Positions 3,251 to 37,378 of a DNA stretch of 38,470 nucleotides are shown here, in pieces. Each line of letters opens with the position of its first letter. Positions within the stretch are counted from its first letter, which is position 1. The stretch covers positions 1 through 38,470 of the forward strand of contig NIVC01002071.1 in assembly GCA_002269645.1 (NCBI GenBank), read 5' to 3'. A program made the translations under genes and the position numbers. The DNA comes from Macrostomum lignano. Its lineage: Eukaryota. The notes under the pieces are model-generated. The model ran no database searches, was not told the DNA's origin, and saw nothing but the letters and a program-made list of their open reading frames with translations.

Positions 3251-4152
3251 AGTAGTATAGGAAAAGTAGGTTTGAGCGCAACCCATTTTGAAAAATCACA
3301 AAAAACAGATAAAAATCGACTAAAAACAGGTGAAAATTGTCTGAAAACAGTGATTTTAGTGATTTTTCAAAAGTTTCGAAAAATTGCTTTTTGCGCGATT
3401 TCGTGAGTAAAACCACAAGAAATTTTTGATTCGTGGGTTAAAATAACCTATTTTCAGGTTTCATCATTTCAAAACTAGCATCAAATTTAATAATAGTCTT
3501 TTCTCCCATTGCATAACGCCCTTCAATAAGCCAATCTTACTAGCTTTGCTTTTAACGATCAGTCAGCTACCATCTATGCATAAAAATTGTCCACTCGAGG
3601 CATACAATGCTTTTACAAAAGTCAATAATTTGCTCCTGCACATTCGCTTTGTCCCGAGGCTTTGAAATGGCTTTAATGCTGTTCTAGATTTGTACTTAAA
3701 GATAATAGAAGACATTCAAGAACATGGAGCGCTAATTTAAATTTTTCGTGGCATGCATACTCGACTACTAGAGCACTAACCGCAGCACTCAACATTTCTA
3801 TTGGCTGCCAAAATTTCTGCCAAAACCAAAATTTTTGCCAAAATTTCTGCCAAAAAGTGTTTGGTTTTGGCATCCAATAGGAGTGGCTCGTGCAAATCTT
3901 TTGTGTTCACCCTCTATCTAGCTGTAAAAAAAGACATGAAGTGGGCCACGCAAGTTACAAACGAACAATGCTCTCGCGACCCTACCTACGGACGATTTCA
4001 CTAACCCTTTTCTAAATTATGTATCTTAAAAATGGAACAAATAGCAGGAGAAATTCTCCTCAAAGCAATTTTTATATTGTGACTCAGCTTTAACGTCGTG
4101 CGAAACCCACACTGAGTGAAGCGTATGGTCAAATAGGCTCTCGCAGGAACTC
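3251..4152 (+). repeat. Left terminal inverted repeat (902 bp)
   Basis: Starts AGTAGTATAGGAAAAGTAGG and ends TCGCAGGAACTC. Reverse complement of 19744-20645; mirrored ORFs 3673-3873/20023-20223 and 3801-4004/19892-20095 have identical translations. Confidence 0.97.
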
Positions 4153-4467
4153 TAAAAATTGGTCAAGGACAGCTTCCATTACACAAAGTTAAATCTAATT
4201 CACGTAAATCAAAATTGCTATAATGAAAATTAATTATAAAAAATTAAAAAAGATAACAGCTCCTTAAAATCCGTTTTTAGGATACACTTCGCATAACTTA
4301 TGCAAATAATAATAATGGTTTTGTATTTTAAATATTAAAGTAGTGATTATTAAAACAGTAACAAAAAGTCCTCAAACGCCTATGAAGAACAAAATTAAAA
4401 CATTAGAGCAATTTATTAATATTGACAAATTAGTCCATGATCGCCACAAGTCATCAATCATCTAGTT

Positions 4468-4959
4468 TTAGTTAGCTGATGAAGCAGCAGTGCCTCGGTT
4501 GTCAGCAGTGCCTCGGTTGTCAGCAGTGCCTCGGATGTCAGCAGTGCCTTGGATGTCAGCAGTGCCTTGGATGTCAGCAGTGCCTTGGATGTCAGCAGTG
4601 CCTTGGATGTCAGCAGTGCCTCGGTTGTCAGCAGCGATCTCATAGGGTGGTGGAAGGCTATCATCTTCAGTATCCAAATCACCAATCGCTTGCATGGCTT
4701 GAGCTTGGTTTTGATAGGATAGTGCAATAGCTTGCATGCTTTTTCTTTTTGCCACATTTTCCTTCAGAAGCTTCAGGAGCTTATCCTCCTCCGTAAAGGA
4801 CTTGAATGTATCTAAACCTTGTAGCTTATTGATTAGTCTCTCAGAACCTAGATCTGCAAATATAGTTAATGGCATGAGCCTTCGAATCTTTTGCTTTGTG
4901 AGTTCGAATTCCTTTCGATGATCCCTATATCTCTTGCGAAGTTCCTTTTCGGATGGCAT
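4468..4959 (-). CDS. Maverick accessory protein (163 aa) with PPPY motif and C-terminal GTADIQ/GTADNR repeats
   Basis: ATG-initiated ORF with a charged helical N-terminus, the motif SLPPPYE and a coding 18-bp tandem repeat. Confidence 0.6.
   Translation of the reverse strand: MPSEKELRKRYRDHRKEFELTKQKIRRLMPLTIFADLGSERLINKLQGLDTFKSFTEEDKLLKLLKENVAKRKSMQAIALSYQNQAQAMQAIGDLDTEDDSLPPPYEIAADNRGTADIQGTADIQGTADIQGTADIQGTADIRGTADNRGTADNRGTAASSAN
4485..4634. repeat. 18-bp tandem repeat x8.3 (CAGCAGTGCCTYGGWTGT)
   Basis: Read directly; lies inside ORF 4468-4959. Confidence 0.95.
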
Positions 4960-5675
4960 GTCTATTAAAGCTTTTTATTGTTGCAATGAATTTGGAGAGA
5001 ATTATCAGCCATCTTTCCAAATTCATTCCTGTATTAATATTATGTGAAAATACAAAAGCAGCGCATAACCTCAATTCTCATTGGTATCTCATTGATGACA
5101 ACCAATGAGAAAGCGACACCGGGTGAATGGAATGCAACTTTGCAGGCTCATGCCAGATGCAGAAAAAATTCTATCCACATGAGTCAGAATTGTAGTTACT
5201 TGAGATGCATGGCATCGCACTGCACAATGCACACTGAAAGAAACTATGTTCCTTTTTTCTTTAAAGCAGAATGACTCAACATTCTTTCTAGCTTTTCGCA
5301 TCAAGAATGAAGCAAAGCAACTAACCTAACCCTAACAGTTTAGCAGTTGAGTCAATAAGAATTTATTGTTCCTTTATCAATAGGTTTTGAATATCAGCAT
5401 GCTGCAGCAGGAATTGAGCACCTCTTAAACCCCAACTCTAAAGCACGGCCATGGCAGTTTTTTCTCTATTTTCATGACTCAGTGCGCATGTAAGAAGTCG
5501 CTTAGGTGGCTTGATAAAAACCCGCTTTAGTTTTGGAAGCAATACAACACACGTTTATCAGACAGACTAAAGCAAACAGAGTGAACATATAAATCACACA
5601 ACTCAGCAACAACGAAAAGGTAAGAAATAAGAGTTTTGTTCTTGTGTTGATTTTGATACTAGCTAAATAGTTATA

Positions 5676-6311
5676 ATGCCCTACATTTTAGAATCCCGTA
5701 TGGAGGCAGCAATGGCATCATTCGAATCCGACCTCGATAGTCTTATCAAGGAGATTTTTTGTAGTGGGGATTTAAAGCATTGTAAGAAATGGATAGGAGA
5801 ATATAACAAGGTTGCTAGAAAATTTAATAGGAAGAAGTTTGCTATTCCAACTTTTCGAGGTAGATTGGAGAGAGTGGACAAGACAAAGGAACGAATAGCA
5901 GAAGCTGCTAAAATACTGCGGGATTCGATGGAGCATCAAGAGCCGGGAGAGATTAATGAATTTATGGACGGAGAGTATCAATTTCAGGATGCAATTACAG
6001 AACTTAATTCCATTGATAAAATGATAAACGAGCTACAGTGCCGGGGCTTGCAGTATGGAATTAAGTCTGGTCAGATATTAATAAGAATGAAGCTTTCATT
6101 GAGTGACGAGGAGTATAAAGTATTTTTGTCTAGACTACGCTTTAAGTCCGCGTGGGGGAACTATTTAGTCCGAGTGGCTCGTCTAAGCACAGCACATCCA
6201 ATTCTGTGGCGTTGTGGCATCTCACTGTTTCGCCTACGTTCTATAATCAAGTACGCTGAGAAAGCCCTGGAGATGCTGGAGGAAGAGGAGGAAGATGCAC
6301 TTCTGATCTGA
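5676..6311 (+). CDS. Maverick hypothetical helical protein (211 aa) with acidic C-terminus
   Basis: Clean ATG-initiated ORF upstream of polB on the same strand. Function not recognised. Confidence 0.75.
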   Translation: MPYILESRMEAAMASFESDLDSLIKEIFCSGDLKHCKKWIGEYNKVARKFNRKKFAIPTFRGRLERVDKTKERIAEAAKILRDSMEHQEPGEINEFMDGEYQFQDAITELNSIDKMINELQCRGLQYGIKSGQILIRMKLSLSDEEYKVFLSRLRFKSAWGNYLVRVARLSTAHPILWRCGISLFRLRSIIKYAEKALEMLEEEEEDALLI

Positions 6312-6372
6312 TGAAAATCTTATTGCGCGCGTTGTGAATCATAACATCTGACTCTCATTATGCTGACTATTC

Positions 6373-6598
6373 TTTTTCACATCGAATACTGCAGTATCTG
6401 GTTCTTTTTTGCTCGTTGCTTTTTCACATCGAATACTGCAGTATCTGGTTCTTTTTTGCTCGTTGCTTTTTCACATCGAATACTGCAGTATCTGGTTCTT
6501 TTTTGCTCGTTGCTTTTTCACATCGAATACTGCAGTATCTGGTTCTTTTTTGCTCGTTGCTTTTTCACATCGAATACTGCAGTATCTGGTTCTTTTTC
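6373..6598. repeat. 47-bp tandem repeat x~4.8, each unit with palindrome ATACTGCAGTAT
   Basis: CACATCG recurs at 6378, 6425, 6472, 6519 and 6566. Confidence 0.95.
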
Positions 6599-6707
6599 TG
6601 CCTATTGTAATATCGCTTATACATTTCTAATTGCTTAATCCTGTGGATGCCACAATAAATTTATAACGTCATTACATAATTTTCCTGCTAAATTTATTTT
6701 ATAAAAA

Positions 6708-9700
6708 ATGGAACAACTCAGAAAGATGAGTGATGAAGAATTTGAACAATACATTCAAGCTGAGCGGTTTCGGCGTCAGCAGCAAAAGCACACAGATAAT
6801 GAGCCTATAGCGGAGTCCAAAGAAGATGAAGTGGCAGCTCCGCAGATTGGTGATGAAATAATACTACATAAATCCTTTAGAGAGAAGTATAATAAGAAGT
6901 CAGAAATTTCAGAGTATGTCATTAGGAATGTTAATGAAGGTTATATAACAAAGGTTTTTATTCAGTATGAAGATGCAATTAAAGCAGTGTTGGAGAAAGT
7001 TAGAGATGGTGGACGGAGTAAGTTCAACTTGCATTTTGAACTAGAATTCAAAAAGAATTTTAACGAAGACATTCCTCCATTCACAGTCTATGACAATGAA
7101 AGTGGATTCTACAATATTCAGTCAGATTCACAGTATGACACTGCCCTTAGCGAAAGACAGGAGACATTGGAAAAGTTCATTGATGAGTTCTGTGAGAAGG
7201 GATCAGATAATGTCTTTGTGCAGATAAAATCTATCTACATCAGAGTTGCCAAGGTTTCTAGCATTCAGGGAGGATCCTTCTTTACTAACAATGAAATTAA
7301 AAAATGTCGATCAATTCTTAACATTCAGAATGATGATGAGAAATGCTTCCTCTGGTGTGTATTAGCTGTTAAACATCCACAAAATAAAGATGGTTATCGA
7401 GTGTCAAAATATAAACCATATGAAAAAGAACTTAATCTCACCGATATCCAATTCCCCATGAGAATAAAAGATATAAAAAAGTTTGAAAGACTAAATGAAG
7501 AGTTTGCTGTTAATGTGCTGTATTATGAAGGTAAATTCCCAGATACACTACAACATCTCTATGTCTCACCTCATAATCAACGAACTTATGTAGTAGATTT
7601 ACTATACCTGGAGGAAGATGGTAACACTCATTATTGTCTGATAAAAAATCTTACAACATTAGTTTCAAAACAAACTGGAAAGCGTGTAAATCACAAGTCA
7701 TTTTTATGCAGAACATGCATGACTGTTTACACAAGTGAAAACGTGTTGGCCGAGCACTCAAGGTTGTGCGGTAAAAATGCACCCGGTCTTTATAAATTAC
7801 CTAAGGAAGAATCGAAGCTGAAATTTAAGAATCATATATTCAAACTAAAGCTACCCATCGCTATCTATGCTGACTTTGAAGCAACAACTGAACCCATTGA
7901 AGCACAAAGTAAAAGCTTCACTAAGATTTTAGACAAAGAGTCATATACTCTAAAAGTAGCAAATCAGAACGCAATAGCTTACGGTTTTTATATCCATTCT
8001 GAGTTACCCGAGGTAATTAAATCGAAGTATGAAGGATATTGTGGCACAGATGCCAAGGAAAAATATGTTGATAGAATGGTTGAAATTTATCAACAAATTA
8101 AGAATGGTCTGAAGGAGCCTAAGCATATTAATCATAATTTGACATCGCAAGAGGAGGCTTCTTTCTGTAAGGCTAAACAATGCTACATATGCGAGAAGGA
8201 GTTTGATATGGTTCCAGATATGAAGGTGCATGTGAAGGAAATTGACAGTAAAGTTACTATAGAATCTTGGTGCAAAAAATGTCTGAACAAGAGCAATAAT
8301 ATAAGTAAATATAAGATCACAAAGCAACAATGGAAAGAGTTTTACAGGGCTGAAAAATGTGCGAATTGTAAAAATGACTTTACACTTAAGCTAGGTAAGG
8401 TAAGAGAACATTGTCACTATAGTGGCAAATATAGAGGGGCTGCCTGTAAATCCTGCAATGCTCTCGAGAGTAAGAAGCGAGTAATCCCAATCTACTTCCA
8501 GAATGGATCCCACTATGACTTTCACTTCTTAGTGACACACTTAAAGAGCAAAGAGACCATGGAGGATAAATTATTTCCTCCACTATCTAAAACTTCTGAA
8601 GAGTACATTTCTCTCGAGTTTGGATGTAACAAAGTAGTACTGAGGTTCCTAGATTCATACAGGTTCTTGGCTTCCTCGCTGGATATCTGCGCAAAGTCCC
8701 TGAAGGATGAAGACTTCATCATAACAAAGAAATACTTTAAAAACGACAGCGATTTTCAATATGTTAAGCGCAAGGGTGTATTCCCATATGAGTATATCAG
8801 AAGCTTTGGAAGATTAGCAGAAACTGAGTTACCACCATTGAAAGAGTTTTACTCGAGGTTGAAAGGTGAAGACATTTCTTCAGATGAATATGATTTTGCA
8901 AAACAAATGTGGAAAACTTTTAATTGTAAGAATTTGGAGGATTATATGATGCTGTATCTTAAGGTTGACGTTCTATTATTAGCAGATGTATTCGAACGCT
9001 ATAGAACATTCTTCCTGAAACACTTTGAGATTGATCCAGCCAGATGCTTCTCAGCACCAGGATTGAGTTGGAATGCTGGGTTGAAGAAAAGTAAAGTTGA
9101 GTTAGACTTGCTGGCGGATATCGATATGATTCATATGATTGATAGTGGAATAAGAGGTGGATTTAGCGGAGTTCTAGGGTCACGATATGTAAAGGCAAAT
9201 AATCCTTATCTTCCAGGCTATGATTTAGAAAAACCAACTTCCTACTTACTTTACGTTGATTGTACAAATCTCTATGGTTATAGTATGTTGGAACCCCTTC
9301 CTTTTTCTGACTTTAAATGGGAAGCTGATTCCAACTATTATAAAAATCCTCCTGAAGGACGGGGCTGTCTTGTTGAATGTGATCTTGAATATACAAAAGA
9401 ATCAAAAAAGAAAACGTATGCCTTCCCATTAGCACCTGAAAGTACAACTGTGTCAGAAAGTGAATTGAGTGAATATCAGAAAGGATGTCTAGAAGTCGAA
9501 ATGAAAAAGATTGGAAAAGTTCCTAAATTGATCCTTAATTTAAAAAATAAAACAAAATATATCGTACATCATAAGCTATTGCGATTCTATGAAGAGATGG
9601 GCTTGAAAGTGACAAAAGTACATAGGACGATTTCATTCAATGAAAAGCCATGGTTAAAGGAGTATATCGAGTTTAATACGATAGAAAGAAAGAAGGCAAA

Positions 9701-10535
9701 AGAAGCAAAAATTGAGTTCGAAGACAATCAGTTCAAAATGCTTAATGTAAGCATCTTTGGCAAGACAATGGAGGATGTTAAAAAGAGAAAGCGATTTGAG
9801 TTGCTGACAAGTGAGGATGAGATATCTAAGATAATATCCAAGCCAGATTTCATAGACTTCAAAATCTTCAATGAAAATCTAATTTGCATTCACCAGCGAC
9901 CTAAGAATATCCCTCTTGGAACAAAGCCAACATACGCTGGACAAGCAATTCTGGATCTCTCGAAATTGCATATGTATGAAACATTTTACAAAGTTTTCAA
10001 GTCCAAATGGGGGGATAATGTTGAGATTGTTACCTCTGACACCGACTCATTCATTCTTCATATAAAGACAGAAAATATTTATAAAGACATTGCTCAGATG
10101 AAGGAGCATTTCGATTTGTCGCTGTATACTAAAAATTTTCCGATTGATTTACATGATATGAATAATTGTGGAAAGCTGGGAACATTCAAGGATGAATTGG
10201 CAAAATATGATTGCATAATGACAGAAGTAACCGCTCTAAGATCGAAAGCATATTCATTTAAAACAGTTTATGTCAGCACTCAAAAGGAAGGGAAGGAAGA
10301 GAAAAAATTAAAGGGAATCTCAAAGTCAACAGTGAAGCATCATGTACAATATGATGACTATAGAAATATACTACTTGATTATAACGAACCAGTCTATAGG
10401 AAAGTGTATAGCCTTAGATCAGACAAGCATAACATGACTTTAATAGAACAAAATAAGAAGGCTATTAGTCCTTTCGATGACAAAAGATACATTGAATCCA
10501 ATGGAATTATAACACATCCTCATGGATTCAAATAA
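6708..10535 (+). CDS. polB: Protein-primed family B DNA polymerase (1275 aa) with endonuclease VII-like Zn-binding insertion
   Basis: Exonuclease motifs YADFE, NGSHYDFHF and YLKVDVLLLAD. Polymerase motifs YVDCTNLYG, KMLNVSIFGK and SDTDS. Insert REHCHYSGKYRGAACKSCN; C2H2-like CRTC..HSRLC. Confidence 0.97.
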   Translation: MEQLRKMSDEEFEQYIQAERFRRQQQKHTDNEPIAESKEDEVAAPQIGDEIILHKSFREKYNKKSEISEYVIRNVNEGYITKVFIQYEDAIKAVLEKVRDGGRSKFNLHFELEFKKNFNEDIPPFTVYDNESGFYNIQSDSQYDTALSERQETLEKFIDEFCEKGSDNVFVQIKSIYIRVAKVSSIQGGSFFTNNEIKKCRSILNIQNDDEKCFLWCVLAVKHPQNKDGYRVSKYKPYEKELNLTDIQFPMRIKDIKKFERLNEEFAVNVLYYEGKFPDTLQHLYVSPHNQRTYVVDLLYLEEDGNTHYCLIKNLTTLVSKQTGKRVNHKSFLCRTCMTVYTSENVLAEHSRLCGKNAPGLYKLPKEESKLKFKNHIFKLKLPIAIYADFEATTEPIEAQSKSFTKILDKESYTLKVANQNAIAYGFYIHSELPEVIKSKYEGYCGTDAKEKYVDRMVEIYQQIKNGLKEPKHINHNLTSQEEASFCKAKQCYICEKEFDMVPDMKVHVKEIDSKVTIESWCKKCLNKSNNISKYKITKQQWKEFYRAEKCANCKNDFTLKLGKVREHCHYSGKYRGAACKSCNALESKKRVIPIYFQNGSHYDFHFLVTHLKSKETMEDKLFPPLSKTSEEYISLEFGCNKVVLRFLDSYRFLASSLDICAKSLKDEDFIITKKYFKNDSDFQYVKRKGVFPYEYIRSFGRLAETELPPLKEFYSRLKGEDISSDEYDFAKQMWKTFNCKNLEDYMMLYLKVDVLLLADVFERYRTFFLKHFEIDPARCFSAPGLSWNAGLKKSKVELDLLADIDMIHMIDSGIRGGFSGVLGSRYVKANNPYLPGYDLEKPTSYLLYVDCTNLYGYSMLEPLPFSDFKWEADSNYYKNPPEGRGCLVECDLEYTKESKKKTYAFPLAPESTTVSESELSEYQKGCLEVEMKKIGKVPKLILNLKNKTKYIVHHKLLRFYEEMGLKVTKVHRTISFNEKPWLKEYIEFNTIERKKAKEAKIEFEDNQFKMLNVSIFGKTMEDVKKRKRFELLTSEDEISKIISKPDFIDFKIFNENLICIHQRPKNIPLGTKPTYAGQAILDLSKLHMYETFYKVFKSKWGDNVEIVTSDTDSFILHIKTENIYKDIAQMKEHFDLSLYTKNFPIDLHDMNNCGKLGTFKDELAKYDCIMTEVTALRSKAYSFKTVYVSTQKEGKEEKKLKGISKSTVKHHVQYDDYRNILLDYNEPVYRKVYSLRSDKHNMTLIEQNKKAISPFDDKRYIESNGIITHPHGFK

Positions 10536-10537
10536 GT

Positions 10538-10843
10538 TTAAAAAACCAAACAATTCAATTGCTTAAGAAGTTTCTTGCGCTGATCATTAAACTCAACATA
10601 CTTCCTGATCTCTTTTATTTTTTTAACTAACTTGTCGATTTCATCTTCAATAAATGCTTCTGCAAAAACAATAGCAGTTTCAAGAAAACATTTGCGATCA
10701 CTTAATTTATCAATATATCCATAATCCGGTTCTATTATTCCACAATGTGTACGCACCTCCCTAAAGTTATTTATTTGTATTTCTCTATCAATGCGCTTTA
10801 TTTCATCTTGGTATGCATTTAGGAGAACTTTTATTGCAGCCAT
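10538..10843 (-). CDS. Maverick hypothetical protein (101 aa)
   Basis: ATG in AAAATG context. Last gene of the minus-strand block; its stop is 2 bp from the convergent polB stop. Confidence 0.65.
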   Translation of the reverse strand: MAAIKVLLNAYQDEIKRIDREIQINNFREVRTHCGIIEPDYGYIDKLSDRKCFLETAIVFAEAFIEDEIDKLVKKIKEIRKYVEFNDQRKKLLKQLNCLVF

Positions 10844-10868
10844 TTTCTAGAAAAAAAATTATACAATA

Positions 10869-11609
10869 TTAATTGTAGGGAGGTGCACTTGGAGCATTTG
10901 ATTGAAGATTGAGTGTTGCCGAGTACTCTTTTGGCTTATCAGCTAGACCCAATTTTTCTCTCAGATCTTTTTCTAGTAATTCCTTTTTAATTTTTTCCTT
11001 CGCTGAATGACCAAGTCTACTCTCTTTGAGGATTTTATCAACGACTTCCGAATGGTTAACTTCTTCAGGCGCAACACAGGCGTCTAACAATTGATCTCTT
11101 TTTTCTCTGTATTCTGAATAAATTGCAGCAGCTGCTTGAACCTCTTCAAGAGTTAATCTATAATCATCAACTGCTTTTTGGGAGTAAATATACAATCTCT
11201 CTCTATATTGATTTGCCAGATCTCTGAGAACAATGTATTTTGCCTTCTGCTTTTGGCAATGAATTTTCACAGTTGCAAACAACGACGTGGATTTTACAGC
11301 TTCAAAACCACTCATTGCCCCGATTACTACTCCAATAACTAAGGGATTCAATGTCAGTATCGATGTTGCTATGCCAATTCCTGTAGCAGCCAAGAGACTT
11401 ACATTTCCTGTCACAATGTTGATCCAATTTATCCTGCTACTTTGCCGTTTGTACTTTTTTACCTTTTTGCTATAAATTGTAAGATCTTTAGTAATGCATT
11501 CAATACTGCCTTTGATTTCACCCTTTCTCTGATTGAAATAGTCCCGCTCCCTCAAATCTGCTTCATGCAGCTCAACCACAGGATAGATGTGTTCATTTTT
11601 TTCATTCAT
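10869..11609 (-). CDS. Maverick membrane-associated protein (246 aa) with hydrophobic hairpin and C-terminal PSAPPY
   Basis: Hydrophobic stretch INWINIVTGNVSLLAATGIGIATSILTLNPLVIGVVIGAMSG, followed by KAVDDYRLTLEE. This recalls a recurrent Polinton membrane-protein family (from recall, unverified). TAAAAATG start. Confidence 0.8.
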   Translation of the reverse strand: MNEKNEHIYPVVELHEADLRERDYFNQRKGEIKGSIECITKDLTIYSKKVKKYKRQSSRINWINIVTGNVSLLAATGIGIATSILTLNPLVIGVVIGAMSGFEAVKSTSLFATVKIHCQKQKAKYIVLRDLANQYRERLYIYSQKAVDDYRLTLEEVQAAAAIYSEYREKRDQLLDACVAPEEVNHSEVVDKILKESRLGHSAKEKIKKELLEKDLREKLGLADKPKEYSATLNLQSNAPSAPPYN

Positions 11610-11611
11610 TT

Positions 11612-13021
11612 TTATGTGGCGATTATGTCTAAAATCGGATAAAGTTGAAAGCCTGAAACAATAAGAACGGTTGATCCTTCAGTGGCTGAATTAATATGCA
11701 CTCTATAAACAGAGAATTTTTCGGTGGAAGCTACTTCAAAATATTTCATGACTCCAGGAACTAAACCAGCGTTTTCGGTAGAAAAAATATTCCTAAAGTC
11801 TCTCTTGTTATTGCTCCCTTTCAGAATAAAACTTTTTGGTTGATTTTTTATAATTTCACTACCTACTGCTTTGGTTCCTTTCAATCCGAATTTCCAAATT
11901 TGAATAGACTCGGGAAGTTGTACTTCAATGTAAGAATTGGGTTCATTCCTCGATGCCCATTCTGAATTAGATACTATATAACCCCAATTATCTGACGTTT
12001 CAAATGCTCCTGATGACGCTACATTGAAACCCCTTTCTCTATAGTTTTGACGTGTTGCTAGTGAGGGAATATATCCTGTATAAGATTTGAAACCTAGTCC
12101 CCGCCTTAGTCGCAGCTCCACTGATTCAAGTGCATTGTCTACGTATAGCTTTGGTACAGCTTGAAGTCTATCTATAGGCCACACTAAATCATTAACCACT
12201 GTTTGTCTCTCAAGTAATTCAACTTTTGTAAGCTTTACGGAACCAGAAAAATTAAGAGAATAATGGAAATAATATGAGGGATTGGGTATTTTTTTCCTAA
12301 GATGTGCATTGCCCCTTCGTAGTTCAATGGGTGCACTTTGTTCAACAGGTGTCCAGTTTGTTCCATTTAGGCTCACACTAACAGACCAACCAGGCCACAC
12401 CTCTCCTTCCAACTTTATCTCTACAACTTTCCTAGCTCTTTTCAAAAATTGAAATCGTATCCACTTGTCTGAGTCATCTGCACTGCTCCAATCTGAAGCT
12501 GGGTTTGAATCTGCAACATGATATGCTGCTGAAGAGTTATGAGAAGCGGTCACTTTCATGTCAGAATGGGAAGCGTTTGAAGTCAGTAATGAAAGAATAT
12601 TGACTAATTTCGAACTCTCTGTACCTCCCGCAGTACCTTGCCATTCTGCTAACAAAGTGTCAATCTCAGTTTTAGAATACATCTTAGTGTCAATCTCAGT
12701 TTTAGAATACATCTTAGTGTCAATCTCAGTTTTAGAATACATCTTAGTGTCAGTTTCGGTTTTTGTGTAGACATTGTTTACGCGCCCATGAGCATCGTCA
12801 ATTAATTGTAGCATGGTGATATTCATTGCGTCACTATCTTCCTTTGAATAAGAGTCTGAAACATTTCTCTTTGCTAACAATAAATTATCTATTTCCTCTC
12901 TCTTATATCCTTCATTTTCATTGATGTATCGATCATCAGCTAACGCTATTGTTATTCCAGGTGCTATATCATTTGAATTTGACGAGTAACCAAATTGATT
13001 GGCAGTATTCTTGTAACTCAT
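11612..13021 (-). CDS. Putative fibre/receptor-binding protein (469 aa): YSKTEIDTKM repeats plus two discoidin (F5/8 type C)-like domains
   Basis: Tandem 10-aa repeats. Segments SDWSSADDSDKWIRFQF and SEWASRNEPNSYIEVQLPESIQIWKFGLKG..PKSFILKGSN follow the discoidin/galactose-binding fold pattern. Confidence 0.75.
   Translation of the reverse strand: MSYKNTANQFGYSSNSNDIAPGITIALADDRYINENEGYKREEIDNLLLAKRNVSDSYSKEDSDAMNITMLQLIDDAHGRVNNVYTKTETDTKMYSKTEIDTKMYSKTEIDTKMYSKTEIDTLLAEWQGTAGGTESSKLVNILSLLTSNASHSDMKVTASHNSSAAYHVADSNPASDWSSADDSDKWIRFQFLKRARKVVEIKLEGEVWPGWSVSVSLNGTNWTPVEQSAPIELRRGNAHLRKKIPNPSYYFHYSLNFSGSVKLTKVELLERQTVVNDLVWPIDRLQAVPKLYVDNALESVELRLRRGLGFKSYTGYIPSLATRQNYRERGFNVASSGAFETSDNWGYIVSNSEWASRNEPNSYIEVQLPESIQIWKFGLKGTKAVGSEIIKNQPKSFILKGSNNKRDFRNIFSTENAGLVPGVMKYFEVASTEKFSVYRVHINSATEGSTVLIVSGFQLYPILDIIAT
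12656..12775. repeat. 30-bp coding tandem repeat (3 near-perfect copies + 1 diverged)
   Basis: AGTGTCAATCTCAGTTTTAGAATACATCTT repeated; encodes YSKTEIDTKM on the minus strand. Confidence 0.9.
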
Positions 13022-13449
13022 TTTAATTGCTGCAAAATTTCGTTATAGCTATCTCCTTTATCGATTCGGTGTAAAAAGTACAGCGACATTTGACCACAAT
13101 ATTTCTTATCAAAAGTTTGAATTTGTTCTTCCATGTCTCCACATATTCTATTCTTTGTGTGATTAAACTTTTCCATAATTTCCAGTGTGGGCGGTAGTGC
13201 ATAGGAATCAAAAAAATAAACCTTATCAGGAGCTGAAAATATAGCTGAATGATGTATACCCCGTTCTTTCGAAGTGTGAATATTTGTCATAAAGTAACCA
13301 TACTGTGGTAAATCAACAATTTCATCTCTCATGGCATAGCGAAATGGTTTTAACTTGAGATATTTTGCCCAATTTATCAGATCAATATTAGTCGTAGTGT
13401 CAGTCCCAAACTTTTGTTTAAATGCATTCCATGTCTCAGCTTCGCTCAT
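13018..13449 (-). CDS. Adenain-like cysteine protease (143 aa)
   Basis: Catalytic order His (RGIHH), Asp (YFFDSY), Gln (QIQ), Cys (YCG). Start placed at the ATG in TAAAAATG (13449) rather than the upstream GTG. Confidence 0.92.
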   Translation of the reverse strand: MSEAETWNAFKQKFGTDTTTNIDLINWAKYLKLKPFRYAMRDEIVDLPQYGYFMTNIHTSKERGIHHSAIFSAPDKVYFFDSYALPPTLEIMEKFNHTKNRICGDMEEQIQTFDKKYCGQMSLYFLHRIDKGDSYNEILQQLK

Positions 13450-13458
13450 TTTTAACAC

Positions 13459-14249
13459 TCATATTTGTCGTACGTGTAGATTTATAAATATTTCCTCGCC
13501 ATCAAAGTCGTATAGAACACCAGACTCATCTTCGATGACAAAGTCGAATGTGCTCAACATGTTTGTAGTTAGTGGTAGGTACACAGGATTTGCAGGCTCT
13601 TGAATAATTTTACTTCCCATTGGGACAGAGAACGATGGAATTGAAAGAAGTATTTGCTTATCAATTAAATGATTTCCATTAGCTGGATCAGTGATAAACC
13701 CCCTTTGATATTTAGACAACGAACCATGATCGCACTTCTAGCTCCGTCTATCCGAGCTGGATTTGGAGCTCTCTCAAATGGTTTCAAATACACTTCCGAA
13801 TTGAATCCCAACAGTCTTCTAAAGTTATTGGAATGTGCATCCCTGAAATCAACTTGATAATCTGTGGCTAACCGTAACTCAACTCTACGCGTGTCTAGGC
13901 TTGCACTGAAAACAATAGCCCCCTCTTTCCAATCATTTGCAGCTGTTAGCAATCTTTGAATCTCGCTTGACAGACTTTTAACTTCCCAAGATCCCGCTTG
14001 AATCTTTATTTTTTTCCATGTTCTACCACTATCCCTCGAGTATCGCAACTCATTATTGCCTCCTTCAATATTGTTAATAGCATCAAAGACTGCAAACTTT
14101 TTTATACCAGCTTCGTATTCTCGATCTTCATACAAATTTATAGGAGTGCCTAGAGTTTGTCGAAATGGGTTTTTAATTGAAAAGAAGTCAAATGTGCGTT
14201 GAAACTTTTTACTCAAGAGGATGTTGACTTTTTCTATTTCTTTTTCCAT
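13459..14249 (-). CDS. Minor capsid (penton-like) protein, split by one frameshift at ~13696-13703
   Basis: ORFs 13665-14249 and 13459-13719 join as IMVRCLNIKGG-FITDPANG if one base is added in the GGGGGTTT run. C-terminus PVYLPL..DFDGEEIFINLHVR fits Polinton minor capsids. Confidence 0.8.
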
Positions 14250-14268
14250 TTTTAAGCAAGTAATTCTG

Positions 14269-14981
14269 CTAGCTCTTTATCAACATTATTATGTCCTTCT
14301 GCTTGGCGGCTAATAAAGTTAACACTCTTTCACTGAGTCCAGATCCCGGTTTTACTCGATATCCTGGTGGATTATCTTTCAATATCCTTACTGCTTGCTT
14401 ATAATTCCCACTTGATTTGGCCGCTGGATTTTTACAATGTTCAATGATGTTAACATAATCCTGCAATGTTTGCATCTTGAATTGCTTCAGCTCTTCACCA
14501 TTTTCAGTTACTTTAGGCATTTTGAACAACTCTTCAAGATCTTCAGAAAATGGCATTCGAAATTCGTTGACAATGATGTCTCGACCTTGTTCATGGAATT
14601 CAACATCTATTACAGATGATCCAAATATATATCCAGCATCAGTTTTTTGAATCCGTATACTAGGCGCTGGTCTTTGAGTTATTGGAATCTTTCCAATTTC
14701 TTCAATTATTTTGTCAAATACTTCTAGGGTTCAAATCGGCCTTTTGGTGTACTTGATTGCGGAACTGGAACTTTTTGATTCTGAAGTTTATCAACAAGGT
14801 TGGCATTGACATCAATAAATTCATCGAGCTTTTCTGTGACAGGTTTTTGAGCTAATGGAGCCACTCTTGCATATAAACTCTCTTCTCCAATTTTCAAATA
14901 GCGTTGAGCATCATTTCTGGATTTGTACATTTCTCGCTGCTTTGCTAAATTAATGAGTTCTCTTATATATTCATTAGTCAT
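14269..14981 (-). CDS. Conserved Maverick hypothetical protein (~237 aa), split by one frameshift at ~14727-14729
   Basis: Adding one C to GAA CCC TAG gives KGRFEP-LEVFDKIIEEIG...YIFGSSVIDVEF..DIIVNEFR, open and in frame into ORF 14269-14556. Confidence 0.7.
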
Positions 14982-14983
14982 TT

Positions 14984-15757
14984 TTACAATGGGATTTTAG
15001 TTAGAACATCCTTATACAAATCTTGCTCATCCTCATCAGCTCTTGTATTTATATAGATATAGCCATACTTCTTTTTCCAAGCCTCTCTACATTTAGCCTT
15101 GAATATAGCGGGTTCATAATTCGTTTCTATATTTCTAGCAATGTGATTTAAGTTTGTATCTTTTTGTTTAAAGATTATGTAACATGTCGTATTCTCCCTG
15201 ACAGTATTGCGATCTAGTTTGGTAAAATTTTGAGCTAGATAAAAACCACAACAGTTTCCATGCCTGCCTCTCTGAAACAGACTTTCCTGAAATGTTTGAT
15301 TAGCCTCTCCCAAAACATCATCCAATATCACACATGTCTTTAGTCCATTATGAAAAATTTCTTCATTTGGAGTATGGGAAAGAGTGACAGGAATTTTCTC
15401 TATTACTTCTGAATTTTCTGATGTGCTTTGCACTCGACCAGGGTTGGCTGCCTCTCGACAAATATGTCTAATATCTTCAGGAGATGCATCCTCACTCACC
15501 TGGTAGACATGATAGAGTGAGTTGATAAGAGAAGGTGGGAGACCATTTTCAAAGCCATATTTTAGAAACTGATACTCTGGATCCATTTGAGATGCTCTGG
15601 GAACATATAAAACTAACTCATTAAAGTCAACTAGTTTTTCAGGACTTGTAAGAATATGGAATAGTAAATATGTTTTACCCGTATTTGTAGCGCCGATAAT
15701 ACAACATAAAAGAGGATTAGGGAAAATAGGATCATGCCGAAATTTTACTTTGGGCAT
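14984..15757 (-). CDS. A32-like (FtsK/HerA) genome packaging ATPase (257 aa)
   Basis: Walker A GATNTGKT, Walker B VILDD, RGRH..FYLAQ and RENTT motifs. Confidence 0.95.
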   Translation of the reverse strand: MPKVKFRHDPIFPNPLLCCIIGATNTGKTYLLFHILTSPEKLVDFNELVLYVPRASQMDPEYQFLKYGFENGLPPSLINSLYHVYQVSEDASPEDIRHICREAANPGRVQSTSENSEVIEKIPVTLSHTPNEEIFHNGLKTCVILDDVLGEANQTFQESLFQRGRHGNCCGFYLAQNFTKLDRNTVRENTTCYIIFKQKDTNLNHIARNIETNYEPAIFKAKCREAWKKKYGYIYINTRADEDEQDLYKDVLTKIPL

Positions 15758-15778
15758 TTAAAAAAAGAAAAAATGACC

Positions 15779-17143
15779 TTATTCGACGCGGGTCATTTGA
15801 TATTCACTGGTAACTTTTATTACATTCTTTGTTTGTTCAAGAATTAGTGCAAAAGCAGTCAGCTCAACATTAGTTGACTTCTTGATAAATAATTGAATAT
15901 TCACTCCACTCTTGACAAGAAACTCATCCTGAGCTGTTAGATCAAAGCAGAATATTGGATAGATTGTTAGAAAGTCTTGTTTATTAAATGGTGGAGTTAC
16001 ACCGAAACGGCTGCAGATGTCCTCGTACATTTCATATGCTCTGTGAATGTCTTGAGCTACTGGATCAATTTCAACATAATCATTCGGATACATCACCTGA
16101 TTTAATCTGACTTGAAGCTGGGTTATTTTCACTGCATTTGCTCCAGTTTTGTAAGACACATACTTGTGATCATTAACTATATATGATGGGTTGTTTACGT
16201 CATATTTGAAAGCTACAAAGATTGCAAGTGGCATATTGGAGATGTTGGCTATGTTCCATGTATATGGACTTCCTTGAATGAGTTGTGGCGGAACCGTTAC
16301 CCTCTCTGGAAATGATACTGTAATGTCCTTGTTGAGTGATTTTAGAAAAGCTGCTTCAGCACTGGGTGACAAAGTAATAGCAGGGATCCAAATCTCAAAG
16401 CTATTAATAGTTAACTTAGCTTCCGTCCCGGCAGCTCCAAAGAAAATTTCAGCATCGTTAGTCTTTCTTGTCCATGTGAATTTATATTTAATTCCTTTGC
16501 TAATCTTCTGCCAATCAAGGAACCCAATGAGGGGTGTTAATGATAGTTTGATTGTTCCACCTCTGTTTGGAGCATTAGTGACATTGTTATAATTTTCAAG
16601 CCTCCTAATGTATCCAGTATTCGAATCCTTCTTATTGAGTCTATTTTTCATAGCGATTGCTGCAGTTCTCACAGCTTCAGCATCTGCGTTGTTTGCTAGA
16701 GCTATATCAGAAACAGTCCCAGCATCTCCAGTGTCTGGAATCCATCCGTATGCTTCTCCAACTTCATTCATCAATTTTGAGTACATTACGGACTTTAAGA
16801 TTGTGTCATACTCTCCAGGATCATTATAGACTTTCTTTGTTCCTCCAATGTCAACTATGAGTTGAGAGAAAAGTCTCATAGGCCAATTATGTTCTAGAGT
16901 AATGTTCGTATTCAAGTCGGTGTTATCTCGTTGTGTTATTGAGTATTTTATACAACCGAATGCCTCTGACATGAGAATGTATGACTCTGTTGAATTGACT
17001 TCATGAACTATTTGACCTCCTGCAACATTGAGATTATTAGTGCTACCTGGTGTTGGAGAAATCTTAATATAGTCTTCTTTCTTTTTGAAAAAGCTAAAAG
17101 TTTTGTCCTCATATAGGTTCAGTATATCCTTTTTGTTCTCCAT
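15779..17143 (-). CDS. Major capsid protein (double jelly-roll, hexon-like; 454 aa)
   Basis: Size, position next to the ATPase, beta-rich composition, and motifs NWPMRLFSQ, LTPLIGFLD, PLAIFVAF and YPIFCFDLT typical of Polinton capsids. Confidence 0.88.
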   Translation of the reverse strand: MENKKDILNLYEDKTFSFFKKKEDYIKISPTPGSTNNLNVAGGQIVHEVNSTESYILMSEAFGCIKYSITQRDNTDLNTNITLEHNWPMRLFSQLIVDIGGTKKVYNDPGEYDTILKSVMYSKLMNEVGEAYGWIPDTGDAGTVSDIALANNADAEAVRTAAIAMKNRLNKKDSNTGYIRRLENYNNVTNAPNRGGTIKLSLTPLIGFLDWQKISKGIKYKFTWTRKTNDAEIFFGAAGTEAKLTINSFEIWIPAITLSPSAEAAFLKSLNKDITVSFPERVTVPPQLIQGSPYTWNIANISNMPLAIFVAFKYDVNNPSYIVNDHKYVSYKTGANAVKITQLQVRLNQVMYPNDYVEIDPVAQDIHRAYEMYEDICSRFGVTPPFNKQDFLTIYPIFCFDLTAQDEFLVKSGVNIQLFIKKSTNVELTAFALILEQTKNVIKVTSEYQMTRVE

Positions 17144-17163
17144 TTTTATACGAGAAATTTCAA

Positions 17164-17616
17164 CTAAGCTTCGTGAGGTCTAAGAATTATCCCATTACCC
17201 TGTTTCTCCTTTTCAACTTTAAAAGTCTTTAGCAGCCACTTGACTGCTTCGCTGGGTACTTGTTCGACTCTTTTAGCCGCATCAACTAACACTCCACTCC
17301 CTTGAGCCTTTTTCAACTCTTCTAGTTTTTGTCGTTCAATGCTTTCTATTGTCTTATTATGCTTAGCATTGTTGGCTGTATTAACACTTTTTGCAATCAT
17401 TGTACCAACTCCGGAGGCTGCTCCGATACCACCCAATATTGCTGGTAGTAAGCCTAATAGAGGAATTATTCCACCTTCATGTTCTTTCTGTTTCTCTTGC
17501 AATTCTCGAATCTTCTCTTTAGAAAGATATTGCTTTTGCTTATTTACAGTAACATATCTTGGTTTTCCCTCTCGAACATATCGATTGAGTCTTGCTTCAG
17601 TGTTTTTCTCGCTCAT
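17164..17616 (-). CDS. Putative virion core protein precursor (150 aa)
   Basis: Basic N-terminus, then HEGG-IIPLLGLLPAILGGIGAASG hydrophobic Gly-rich segment, plus QGSG and QGNG motifs. Adjacent to the major capsid gene. Confidence 0.7.
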   Translation of the reverse strand: MSEKNTEARLNRYVREGKPRYVTVNKQKQYLSKEKIRELQEKQKEHEGGIIPLLGLLPAILGGIGAASGVGTMIAKSVNTANNAKHNKTIESIERQKLEELKKAQGSGVLVDAAKRVEQVPSEAVKWLLKTFKVEKEKQGNGIILRPHEA

Positions 17617-17624
17617 TTTTAAGG

Positions 17625-18047
17625 TCAGAATTTCTTCAAACCATTGCCTTGTCTCAAAGACACTTGAGACTGTTCTGCTGTTCCTAGAGCCTTTTTAACA
17701 ATATCTTGAATAGCCTTATTTGATTGAGAAGCTATCTGTTGCTCTTCTTCCATTCTTTTCTTTGCTTCTTTATCTCTACGTTTCTTTTTAATATATTCCA
17801 GTTCCTCACCTGCTTTAGACATGTCACTGTATGATTTCTTCGCATCGAATATGTTCTTCGCTGTGGTAGCTGTTTTACCTATTGCATCAGCTCCACTCAC
17901 AATTTTACTTCCATGATTTGATAAAAAGTTTGTGACACCACTGATCATATCACCAATTCCTTCACCCTCTTTATCAGCTAGTAGTTGTGAATCAGACGTT
18001 TCAATCTGACCTTTCGCCCGTTTGCAGTTTGTTCGATAGGCGCTCAT
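17625..18047 (-). CDS. Putative virion core/membrane-active protein precursor (140 aa)
   Basis: Start at TAAAAATG (18047, MSAYRT). EGEG is followed by amphipathic IGDMISGVTNFLSNHG, then a K/E-rich coil and terminal QGNGLKKF. Confidence 0.7.
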   Translation of the reverse strand: MSAYRTNCKRAKGQIETSDSQLLADKEGEGIGDMISGVTNFLSNHGSKIVSGADAIGKTATTAKNIFDAKKSYSDMSKAGEELEYIKKKRRDKEAKKRMEEEQQIASQSNKAIQDIVKKALGTAEQSQVSLRQGNGLKKF

Positions 18048-19354
18048 TTTTAGTTGAAAAATTTGCTGGTAGAAGCTGGGATTTGTAAAATGATCCAATG
18101 ATTTCTTCTCCATTCTCATCCTCAATAATGTAGGTTATGGGATTGGAGTAAACTATTTTCTTTATCCTAAACACTTCTGAAATTTTCCAATATCCTCTTC
18201 GACCCTTTTCAAAGTGCTCCTTATATCTATAGATATGAACTTTGTCACCTACTTTGAAGTTTGGTTTCTCATTTGAATACTCGAAAGTTGGCTTTGGTAC
18301 TCGCTCAGGATGTTTAGATGCTTCTGAAGGAGTTATCAGAATCTCAGAATGGATTGTGTTGTTGTATTTTTCAACAATAGCTGGCAATGTGTGGAGCCAC
18401 TTCTGATTACCCTGTAGATCGAATTCAAACCAGAGTTTATTTGTGAGAGTACGATTGAACCTCTCAATCATTGCATTCTTAGACTCACCATAAATTGAAA
18501 CATCTTGTTAATATACTCCCCTTTCATCTTTCTTTCTATGTCGTCTTTTGAAAACGAGTATAGCTTGTACATATGCTGATTATAAAACTCCTTGCCTTCA
18601 TCTACACAAAGTCTCTCTGATCGTCTTCCTGATTCCTTAAATACTTTTTGGAAAGCTTCTGCAACTTCCGCTCCCGTCTTTGTTTTTAAAGGAACTGCCC
18701 AGGCGTAACGTGTAAAACCATCTATGATAGTGAGAGCATATTTGTAACCTCTTTCGGGTGGTAGGATAATGATATCTGCATGCCAAATTGTGTCTTTTGC
18801 ATAGTGAATCATTTTTCTAAACAGTCTTGGTTTTCTATATTCCCTATGCAATTTTACTGCATCTTCATAGCTAAGACCCTTACCATAAATTGTTAGACAG
18901 TCTATACAATTGTTGGGGTTGTGAGTATGAATTCCTAATCCAAACCGAACTTTAGCATTGATAATACGCTTTATTAGATTTCTAATGAGTCTCTCCTTTA
19001 CCGACAAGTCGCTGGTTGGAATAGCATCTAAATCAGCTATCATTTTTTCATCAGCAATATGCTTCTTTGCTAGGGCTTCCTCTGGAGTTGAAGACGTCTT
19101 TTCAGCATCTCTATAGCTTTTGTCATGATAGTAAGCAGTCCAATCAATTGGATTAATTGGTAGACTATCATACCGAGGCCAGTCTGTAATTGGATTGAGT
19201 CTCTTGTCTAAATTTGTACCTGGGCCAGTGAAAGAATACCCTGGAATATGAAATTCGCCAGGATATTTTCCAGTGCGAAGATGGGTGGTAGTTTTGTTAT
19301 AGCTGACTGAATATCCAATGCAGAACCTAGAAATAATGGTTTACTGAAGGCCAT
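18001..19354 (-). CDS. PLA2-integrase fusion: parvovirus-type phospholipase A2 domain plus retroviral-type (rve) DDE integrase; frameshifts at ~19283 and ~18498
   Basis: Frame upstream of ORF 18468-19043 stays open and reads HIPGYSFTGPGT..PINPIDWTAYYHDKSY..ADEKM. DDE residues in WHADII, CVDEGKEF and IERFNRTL. ATG at 19354 in TAAAAATG context, one frame off. Confidence 0.85.
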
Positions 19355-19387
19355 TTTTATAAAAATAAATTTAAGTAATCTACAGAC

Positions 19388-19590
19388 TTAGGCTGCGTTA
19401 ACTGCTGTAGCAATAGAGCCTGCTGCTGCACCTGCCTGTTCTATGAAAGGTAGATTTGTCTTTTACTAAGTTGGATATGGTGCTTATAGTATCAAAAAAG
19501 ACCTTCTCCATTATACTCTAGTGGTTCGCCTATTGTATAGTCTCTTATCTTGCATGATTCTGTAACGTGGTGCGCTTCGTGTCTTTTTAG
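19388..19590 (-). pseudogene. Disrupted paralogue of the 17625-18047 core protein
   Basis: With several single-base indels it reads YNGEGLFDTISTISNLVKDNLPFIEQAGAAAGSIATAVNAA, parallel to EGEGIGDMISGVTNFL..ADAIGKTATTAKN. Confidence 0.45.
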
Positions 19591-19726
19591 AAAGGGGGTG
19601 AACACAATAGACTAGCATGAGACGCTCCTATTGGTTGCCAAAACCAAAACTTTTTTGGCAGAAATTTTGGTCGCAAGATTTGGCAGAAATTTTGGCAGCC
19701 AATAGCAATGTTCAGTGCTGCGGTTA
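19575..19726. repeat. Diverged direct copy of a TIR sub-region (CCAAT/TTGGCA cluster)
   Basis: gggtgaacacaa..ctcctattgg.tgccaaaaccaaa..ttttggcagaaattttgg..ggcagccaatag..gtgctgcggtta matches ~19955-20119. Confidence 0.85.
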
Positions 19727-19743
19727 TGTATAGTTAGTTTGGT

Positions 19744-20645
19744 GAGTTCCTGCGAGAGCCTATTTGACCATACGCTTCACTCAGTGTGGGTTTCGCACGA
19801 CGTTAAAGCTGAGTCACAATATAAAAATTGCTTTGAGGAGAATTTCTCCTGCTATTTGTTCCATTTTTAAGATACATAATTTAGAAAAGGGTTAGTGAAA
19901 TCGTCCGTAGGTAGGGTCGCGAGAGCATTGTTCGTTTGTAACTTGCGTGGCCCACTTCATGTCTTTTTTTACAGCTAGATAGAGGGTGAACACAAAAGAT
20001 TTGCACGAGCCACTCCTATTGGATGCCAAAACCAAACACTTTTTGGCAGAAATTTTGGCAAAAATTTTGGTTTTGGCAGAAATTTTGGCAGCCAATAGAA
20101 ATGTTGAGTGCTGCGGTTAGTGCTCTAGTAGTCGAGTATGCATGCCACGAAAAATTTAAATTAGCGCTCCATGTTCTTGAATGTCTTCTATTATCTTTAA
20201 GTACAAATCTAGAACAGCATTAAAGCCATTTCAAAGCCTCGGGACAAAGCGAATGTGCAGGAGCAAATTATTGACTTTTGTAAAAGCATTGTATGCCTCG
20301 AGTGGACAATTTTTATGCATAGATGGTAGCTGACTGATCGTTAAAAGCAAAGCTAGTAAGATTGGCTTATTGAAGGGCGTTATGCAATGGGAGAAAAGAC
20401 TATTATTAAATTTGATGCTAGTTTTGAAATGATGAAACCTGAAAATAGGTTATTTTAACCCACGAATCAAAAATTTCTTGTGGTTTTACTCACGAAATCG
20501 CGCAAAAAGCAATTTTTCGAAACTTTTGAAAAATCACTAAAATCACTGTTTTCAGACAATTTTCACCTGTTTTTAGTCGATTTTTATCTGTTTTTTGTGA
20601 TTTTTCAAAATGGGTTGCGCTCAAACCTACTTTTCCTATACTACT
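19744..20645 (-). repeat. Right terminal inverted repeat (902 bp)
   Basis: Starts GAGTTCCTGCGA and ends CCTACTTTTCCTATACTACT; same length as the left TIR. Confidence 0.97.
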
Positions 20646-37350: not shown

Positions 37351-37378
37351 TGTTGTGTCGTAACTTAAAGGGTCAACT
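37351..37378 (+). repeat. 28-bp direct repeat, right copy, after a purine-rich PPT-like tract
   Basis: Preceded by GGATAGGAGTAAGA; starts with TG like an LTR. Confidence 0.8.

Follow-up and report, generated by a model that had tools for sequence, protein, structure and literature searches.

We analysed a stretch of 38,470 nt from Macrostomum lignano (contig NIVC01002071.1, hereafter the window), which carries a Maverick/Polinton of 17.4 kb at positions 3251-20645. A first-pass annotation, made from the letters alone, had described this element as an apparently complete, young endogenous virus with an unusually full set of genes for entry and exit. Taken by itself, the window element is an ordinary young Polinton. 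It represents the intron-free form of an element whose sister copies in the same genome carry an insert in the PLA2-integrase gene, predicted to be a self-splicing group I intron and likely spread by nuclease homing, a reading to which we assign a probability of roughly 0.72.

The window element and its family

The element displays the long terminal inverted repeats (TIRs) with AGT-type start that mark a Maverick/Polinton, with AGTAGT at the ends, and alignment of the two 902-nt repeats gives 0 mismatches, as the first-pass annotation had stated. Its intact polB could also be confirmed, since the gene is one frame of 1275 aa in which the Exo I-III and Pol A-C motifs of a protein-primed family B polymerase are present together with an endonuclease VII insert. 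A Cys/His pair in the same protein fits what we take to be the vOTU pattern. No PF03175 match was obtained for this PolB at E<=0.05, so the pfam03175-type polymerase of Alpha adintoviruses is not found here; judged by its sequence, the window PolB is Beta-type by the definition in the accessible part of PMC8502044.

Pfam matches above cut-off were found for the major capsid protein (MCP, PF21738), the A32-type ATPase (PF04665), the rve (DDE) integrase (PF00665), which additionally matches foamy virus integrases in the PDB, and the F5/8 (discoidin) domain of the fibre (PF00754), so that the previously noted discoidin-like fibre stands. A double-jelly-roll MCP, with 321 relatives at E<=0.001, is thereby accompanied by a packaging ATPase. 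The PLA2 domain noted earlier is equally present (PF08398, matched in a natural gene copy free of interruptions), but it forms the N-terminus of the integrase frame and not a gene of its own, the fusion frame measuring 452 aa where unbroken. For penton and protease, neither Pfam nor PHROG gave a match; open reading frames (ORFs) of the expected size and place are conserved in the window's own family A and in families B and D, described below. The labels penton, protease, pX-like and pVI-like follow from position and from motifs that we take to be diagnostic, with no profile match. Of the claim that all morphogenesis genes are present, the part concerning MCP and ATPase is backed by profiles; penton and protease are named by position and motif, and the penton frame is broken.

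Element ends and copies were taken from the host assembly, and read contigs are assembled contigs of public runs, 24 of which were considered, none being on record as RNA. Out of 29 near-identical TIR ends, 22 have an exact reverse-complement partner, yielding nine 6-bp hexamers, and polB shows a mean pairwise difference of 0.37% among 11 copies. Together with the perfect TIRs, these values support a very young age of the window family, in line with the recent insertion proposed earlier. The remaining seven ends comprise one at a contig edge and six from a diverged subfamily with a single shared flank. At loci L024-L029, six TIR ends of 93-96% identity, all left-type and with one shared flank hexamer, are arranged in inverted pairs 12-14 kb apart, possibly a non-autonomous derivative or a larger inverted repeat.

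The 6-bp target-site duplication of Mavericks/Polintons is consequently observed at the level of the family and not in the window copy's own flanks, which read TGCGTT on the left and TGCGGC on the right. TGCGTT has its exact partner at right ends on two other contigs (C2472 and C2167), and TGCGGC at a left end on a third (C1449). The window interior is closer to the C1449 copy, with 0 substitutions over the initial kb, than to the C3035 copy, which has the window's left flank and differs by 2, 5, 10 and 8 substitutions per kb. Mismatched flanks of the same sort were observed in three of seven two-ended family B copies and in one more copy of family A, the partner ends again lying on different contigs, and many element copies stop at contig ends. 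Because the mismatch recurs and so many copies stop in this way, the window is most likely an assembly mis-join, in which the body of one insertion has been attached to a flank that belongs to a second. Ectopic recombination between two near-identical copies, linking two chromosome sites, would render the flanks real; copies are 99-100% alike across kilobases, and the module exchange described below demonstrates that recombination happens. However, the recurrence in B and A copies and the stops at contig ends fit reads shorter than the element, and we consider a real chimera quite unlikely. With these flanks and three interrupted genes, the completeness claimed for the window element is not confirmed for the copy as assembled.

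Several insertions lie in minisatellites (window 20646-20895 and 2853-2906, L005-L010 and the C2696 flanks). The 21-bp minisatellite repeat is extremely abundant in read contigs, and chance may account for insertions there.

The interrupted genes are PLA2-integrase, the putative penton and ORF243 (Table 1). PLA2-integrase reaches its C-terminus in eight of ten frames with the A-type catalytic motif. Unbroken frames among the copies amount to 7/25 for the penton, 8/24 for ORF243 and 3/8 for polB, some frames stopping at contig edges or deletions, and to 7/21 assembled frames for the fibre. Over the fetched copies we counted 323 small indels, 193 of them private and 28% located in homopolymers, where 12% would be expected. 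Read contigs of public runs display lengths unlike the window's at the break sites. The window's gene breaks are not family-wide, and the finding that the first-pass annotation had named as fatal to its reading, frameshifts confirmed in all copies, was not obtained. Two observations point the other way: one deep run has the other length in only 39% of its depth at 13695, in the penton, and one run keeps the window state at 14727, in ORF243. Both sites look polymorphic in the runs, and these two breaks may be real in some copies. A further candidate break near 14305 was dropped, being an allele near the C-terminus.

A predicted group I intron in sister copies

Similarity between family B and the window ends at 19223, within the PLA2 calcium loop. 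In B, the first 44 PLA2 codons recur at a distance of ~890 nt on the upstream side; in most D copies this distance is ~335 nt. The displaced codons are 89-93% identical to family A, and with this first exon found, a truncated and dead PLA2 in family B could be rejected. Compared with Rfam RF00028, the insert scores 88.9, 82.6 and 61.1 bits (gathering cut-off 50), and the window itself gave no RF00028 match. The host assembly contains at least 28 B-type and at least 40 D-type intron places (at least 68), and 28 of 28 scored places exceed the cut-off. Among the family D protein matches listed, at least 83 are of the split form versus 3 of the unsplit form. Parsing recovered one and the same Gly|Pro junction at 53 of 58 loci; of the remaining five, four keep these boundaries with an altered exon 2 and one is without the 5' part. 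At all 53, exon 1 closes with GGT, which would put U at the 5' splice site, GGT being a requirement of the parser itself.

B introns measure 836-895 nt and D introns 303-338 nt. When 14 distinct cores are laid on a structure of 60 pairs, 98.1% of the cells are paired, compared to 39-54% in slid controls, and the intron fold has a z-score of -3.27. A P3-P7 core with a conserved G-binding pair is present: P7 is 100% paired in the 14 distinct rows, its G-C G-binding pair is invariant, and nine pairs, three of them in P7, are changed on both sides. Peripheral insertions and deletions spare the core. All 24 B-type introns end in the terminal G, as do 4 of 29 D-type introns. Presence, site and structure can be observed directly in these alignments, by which the predicted group I intron is structurally maintained.

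A number of observations weigh against a splicing intron or weaken the numbers given above. The other 25 of the 29 D-type introns (L153-L182) end in A and not in G, with the G-binding pair of P7 unchanged. A search for spliced contigs gave no clean junction in four runs, where unspliced boundaries are present; of the two joints that span the intron, both with additional letters, one is the empty A-type allele. An internal Met would yield a 348-aa integrase without splicing. Compensatory changes mostly split B from D and therefore represent about nine events rather than 49, and 80 of 500 shuffles attain the compensatory-pair count. Host genes are found in two to three copies in the assembly, so that place counts overstate independent loci, and at L141, which has the same sequence as L140, the intron match is not listed at the RF00028 gathering score. 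One could thus regard the insert as a non-splicing passenger, brought by the Polinton from a protist-like donor, with PLA2 lost and the integrase made from the internal start. The lack of a clean spliced contig, the terminal A and the internal Met would suit such a passenger, as would the group I introns of protist Polinton-like viruses (PLVs) described in the accessible text of PMC12220804. Nine compensatory pairs with three in P7, a retained G-binding pair, peripheral indels that avoid the core, a first exon conserved in B and D and the coexistence of filled and empty alleles in both families are all at odds with it, however, and we consider a passenger unlikely. Among the read contigs, loose ends at the 5' splice site in run X15 show the 5' end of the intron preceded by an exon unlike those of A, B and D, which hints at a further host gene or family.

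We therefore return to a predicted mobile ribozyme, for which the nucleases and the empty alleles are the relevant observations. Inside each of the 24 B introns, an Eco47II-like PD-(D/E)xK nuclease of 211-228 aa (PF09553) is encoded, whose frame reads into the core. D introns are ORF-less, and the gene upstream is Eco47II-like (66% identical to that of B) in 11 of 29. In the other 18 the upstream gene is HNH-like and not Eco47II-like, and the HNH-like gene adjoins empty alleles too, both of which count against the predicted homing. The presence of either nuclease in the slot upstream of the D PLA2-integrase (L137-L144) suggests competing mobile nucleases. The intron site is empty in 14 of 14 A copies, the window included, and filled in 14 of 17 B copies. 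All six fixed differences between A and B reside at 18836-19002, 220-390 nt from the site, and divergence climbs towards the site, a pattern as would be expected of a co-conversion tract. In six of nine nuclease homologs from outside, the tail continues in frame through this same ribozyme core, so that the predicted intron-nuclease unit is not confined to the present genome. The intron motif was not found when viral and metagenome contigs were scanned for it, and a comparison of the intron core with phage records gave a 48-nt match only.

It should be noted that protist PLVs are known to contain group I introns and that none are known in the nuclei of bilaterians, as would be expected if the intron-bearing elements derived from a co-sequenced protist, food organism or symbiont. 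This origin is largely refuted. The intron-bearing elements have the 8.4-kb module at 98% in common with the window element, which lies beside rhodopsin-type G protein-coupled receptor (GPCR) and CUB genes; one intron copy is located on a 1.1-Mb contig together with an NPY-family gene; one lies in a flank resembling the window minisatellite, with an exact duplication; and the module is found in 20 runs labelled as one organism. Many NPY/NPF-family genes are present in the host assembly, including the one on the 1.1-Mb contig, and we take this family to be a bilaterian marker.

For the comparison with the nuclear intron Tth.L1925, we presumed the structural features of IC1 introns. As in IC1 introns, the predicted 5' splice-site U is paired to an internal guide and the nuclease ORF is located in the P1-P2 region. 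The P3-P7 core and a long P5abc-like extension with a GAAA loop are likewise shared with nuclear IC1 introns such as Tth.L1925 (PMC3679873, accessible part). The same source places nuclear group I introns only in microbial rRNA genes, with His-Cys nucleases, whereas here the host gene is protein-coding, the nuclease is Eco47II-like and most D-type copies end in A. In the part of PMC12220804 that is accessible, RF00028 introns are described only in PLVs of three protist groups (rhizarian, chlorophyte and cryptophyte), where the gene that holds them is small and unannotated and no nuclease was identified. The likeness to those introns lies in RF00028, in the length of ~300-380 nt and in the location within virion-module genes of integrated elements, the difference in the bilaterian host, the PLA2-integrase gene, the coexisting empty and filled alleles and the PD-(D/E)xK nuclease in or beside the intron. 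A system from 2009, as cited in the available text of PMC11296320, resembles the present one in combining a free-standing nuclease beside an ORF-less intron (here D) with a homologous nuclease (66%) inside the intron (here B), and is unlike it in that the upstream slot of D is HNH-like in 18 of 29 intron copies and that cleavage is here only predicted.

According to the accessible portion of PMC10964413, group I introns are absent from metazoans except for non-bilaterian lineages and five sharks, and that of PMC11835236 restricts metazoan group I introns to placozoans, corals and sponges, where they are mostly mitochondrial. For the terms searched, the accessible parts of PMC10748475, PMC11131425, PMC11296320, PMC3671162 and 10.1101/2025.04.19.649669 report no such intron, and the supplement text of PMC8502044, which is incomplete, does not mention introns. 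A literature search for group I introns in animal Polintons, Mavericks or adintoviruses or in bilaterian nuclear genes returned no report, with subscription papers and bioRxiv supplements outside its reach. A self-splicing group I intron, as predicted here, would be new for bilaterian nuclear genes.

A capsid module on two replicons, and the putative genes for entry and exit

An open MCP at >=99% identity was found at 17 places, most of them without the window's TIR. Family B shares with the window a module of 8.4 kb (10840-19223) at ~98%, while its TIRs differ (~585 nt), its PolB is 41% identical to the window PolB and it encodes an 833-aa Prim-Pol/PriCT-2/D5 helicase. In family B PolB, none of 19 frames has the acidic residues of Exo I, and the Exo III motif is absent. 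At L047:2785-5286 and at L045 the exonuclease-degenerate PolB is observed together with the separate Prim-Pol/PriCT-2/D5 helicase. The block of helicase, PolB and TM246, a 246-aa membrane protein, is present in two orientations, in 6 versus at least 11 copies. Within the shared module, compared over 31 rows with 10 short rows left out, the distance between A and B is 1.7%, compared to 1.6% within B; the two families have 48 polymorphic sites in common and 6 fixed differences, and a module tree, midpoint-rooted and without a clade test, interleaves A and B. For the direction of module transfer we claim no donor. Family B junctions appear as loose ends in the read contigs of four of four runs. 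Weighing against extensive exchange, the apparent A/B recombination is perhaps inflated by mixed-read polishing.

Module swaps are on record in section 3.1 of PMC8502044, a paper in which PolB and virion modules are seen to change partners, and in sections 11 and 13 of 10.64898/2026.10.13.758929, both available in part. The accessible text of PMC11161782 connects the loss of the exonuclease with the gain of a helicase, and family B fits this pattern, its Exo motifs being lost and a Prim-Pol/PriCT-2/D5 helicase present. As in the replicase mosaicism of Polisuviricotina (Barth, Ha and Aylward 2026, 10.64898/2026.10.13.758929, accessible sections), near-identical morphogenesis modules are combined with different replicases; in contrast to that work, dozens of integrated copies are found here in one animal genome, and the integrase goes with the capsid module and not with PolB and TIRs. 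The capsid module common to two replicons constitutes a recent, multi-copy instance of module exchange. As side observations, two old B copies, on C620 and C1101, have a 490-bp insertion with a 288-bp duplication, two A copies have a 5-kb insertion with a 110-bp duplication (C3459, L043/L040 region, window equivalent 10679-10788), and on C67 and C273 B copies are nested in a further Polinton family that bears PTAP.

The gene complement resembles that of animal Mavericks/Polintons ('adintoviruses', PMC8502044, accessible part; Starrett et al. 2021) in TIRs, PolB, rve integrase, FtsK/A32 ATPase, putative cysteine protease, double-jelly-roll capsid, PLA2 and fibre. There, PLA2 is characteristic of one virion module and tied to the Alpha class, whereas the window element pairs PLA2 with a non-PF03175 (Beta) PolB; furthermore, PLA2 is here fused in frame to the integrase, while PLA2X is a separate gene in the searchable text and the single searchable map row of that paper, whose other maps are mostly pictures and could show a fusion. 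Compared with a Beta adintovirus, characterized by a divergent PolB and GasderminX and cupiennin genes, the window has the non-PF03175 PolB, and TM246 gave no match to gasdermin. The fusion recurs in an outside homolog at 71%, which has both domains, and in family D. No related PLA2-integrase loci were found in viral and metagenome contigs. Literature searches on Polintons with late domains and on a Polinton PLA2-integrase fusion gave no report in animal Polintons, subscription papers being outside the search. G-x-G motifs between the PLA2 and integrase domains match what we take to be the cleavage motif, which suggests that the fusion may be cleaved by the element's protease.

The membrane protein and the PSAP and PPxY motifs noted earlier are indeed present, with PSAP in the hydrophobic TM246 and PPxY in a different protein, ORF163. 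Conserved P[TS]AP, YPxnL and PPxY motifs, as in late-domain proteins, were observed among the homologs: TM246 homologs of 64-69% identity have PSAP in 4/4 full-length sequences and YPxxxL in 5/5, and the PPxY of ORF163 is kept in two homologs at 40-44% identity. A TM246 homolog of 24% identity from a further Polinton family has PTAP at the opposite end, near the N-terminus. The TM246 homolog of family D, by contrast, has neither PSAP nor another late-domain motif, which counts against a role in exit. The earlier idea of egress, here predicted to proceed by way of ESCRT, gains modest support from the motif conservation. A model of TM246 (pLDDT 62) has as its best match an uncharacterised iridovirus protein (E 9e-4), next to weak SLATT-like rows, and gave no match in the PDB; its Atlas neighbour, orbivirus NS3 with a score of 0.76, is a lead only. 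In family D (L137-L144), a 223-aa ORF with PPxY adjoins the nuclease slot, and the further large Polinton family (L125-L136) has at least 150 places for the membrane-protein gene, with PTAP near the N-terminus of its TM246 homolog.

In family D, with an MCP identity of 24-28%, the PLA2-integrase fusion recurs alongside a discoidin fibre, a membrane protein and pX/pVI-like genes. Because so distant a family carries the same genes, the predicted toolkit is standard for Polintons of this host, and the first-pass annotation's view of it as unusually full finds no support. Alternatively, the elements may be intracellular transposons only, in which capsid, PLA2, fibre and late motifs serve an intracellular particle or are decaying and no infectious virion is formed. 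The low numbers of unbroken fibre (7/21) and penton (7/25) frames in the assembly would be compatible with such decay. Yet the MCP is open at its 17 places of >=99% identity, the 1-2-nt indels are scattered, mostly private and homopolymer-enriched, and two families with MCPs only 24-28% identical have each retained a discoidin fibre of receptor type and a complete PLA2 site. We regard a purely intracellular existence as doubtful.

We propose a model in which PolB copies the excised linear DNA, and capsid, penton, ATPase and protease would package it. The protease would cut the PLA2-integrase polyprotein, so that both parts travel in the particle, PLA2 serving membrane entry and the integrase insertion with 6-bp duplications, while TM246 may recruit ESCRT for exit. 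Recombination between co-replicating elements would swap the capsid-integrase module. The nuclease is predicted to cut empty alleles, into which the intron is copied, and splicing would restore the PLA2 calcium loop. In its boldest form, the model implies active homing group I ribozymes in a protein-coding gene of a bilaterian nucleus, carried by resident DNA viruses, with an intron that has nearly swept one family and the young copies of another, with a nuclease that is both free-standing and intron-encoded, and with the window family as the next empty target by way of the capsid module shared by two replicons; for this the balance appears to us even. A structurally maintained intron that recurs dozens of times in the nuclear genome of a bilaterian, within a protein-coding gene, offers a direct test of whether self-splicing can operate in animals next to the spliceosome and mRNA surveillance. 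A route for ribozymes and homing nucleases into animal genomes becomes visible as well. With empty and filled alleles and free-standing and intron-encoded nucleases in one genome, a proposed origin of mobile introns becomes testable.

Feature map and neighbouring sequences

Table 1. Features of the window element and its immediate flanks (positions within the window).
Feature	Position	Strand	Remark
Left flank hexamer TGCGTT	3245..3250	+	belongs to insertion alpha
Left TIR, 902 nt, AGTAGT start	3251..4152	+	
ORF163, 18-bp tandem repeat tail	4468..4959	-	PPxY at residues 103-106
Spliceosomal intron GT..AG, 72 nt	5620..5691	+	in ORF203 5' leader
ORF203	5700..6311	+	no assigned family
47-bp tandem repeat x4.8, upstream of polB	6372..6597	.	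copy number differs among copies
PolB, protein-primed type, 1275 aa	6708..10535	+	endonuclease VII insert
ORF101	10538..10843	-	family D homolog at 31-38%
Module common to families A and B	10840..19223	.	~98% nt identity
TM246, helical, 246 aa	10869..11609	-	hydrophobic segment ~residues 62-105; N-terminal YPxxxL, C-terminal PSAP
Fibre-like protein, 469 aa	11612..13021	-	30-bp shaft repeats, F5/8 type C (discoidin) domains
Putative cysteine protease	13018..13449	-	which we take to be adenain-type; His, Asp, Cys read from sequence; family D homolog 61-68%
Putative penton (minor capsid protein)	13459..14249	-	presumed, label by position; broken near 13698
ORF243, 243 aa	14269..14981	-	no assigned function; broken near 14727
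A32/FtsK-type packaging ATPase	14984..15757	-	
MCP, double-jelly-roll	15779..17143	-	PF21738
Putative pX-like core protein	17164..17616	-	presumed label; GG-type cleavage motifs
Putative pVI/cupiennin-like amphipathic protein	17625..18119	-	presumed label
PLA2-integrase fusion gene	18001..19354	-	broken near 19274 and 18497-18537
Empty group I intron site	19223..19224	-	between Gly and Pro codons of PLA2 calcium loop
Right TIR, 902 nt	19744..20645	-	
Right flank, 21-bp minisatellite x11.7, starts TGCGGC	20646..20895	+	belongs to insertion beta

The 72-nt leader intron of ORF203 is skipped in the contigs of three of four runs and kept in seven of seven assembled copies that cover the site, and for this reason ORF203 is likely transcribed and spliced. 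A family search with ORF203 gave no usable family.

Outside the element, the window contains an intact 355-aa transposase of Tc1/IS630 type (26045-27112, minus strand) and, at 35427-37378, a remnant resembling a long-terminal-repeat retrotransposon, with an integrase zinc-binding domain and flanked by short direct repeats. The minus strand additionally carries a single-exon rhodopsin-family GPCR (21558-22832) and a multi-exon gene with tandem CUB domains (28400-33600).

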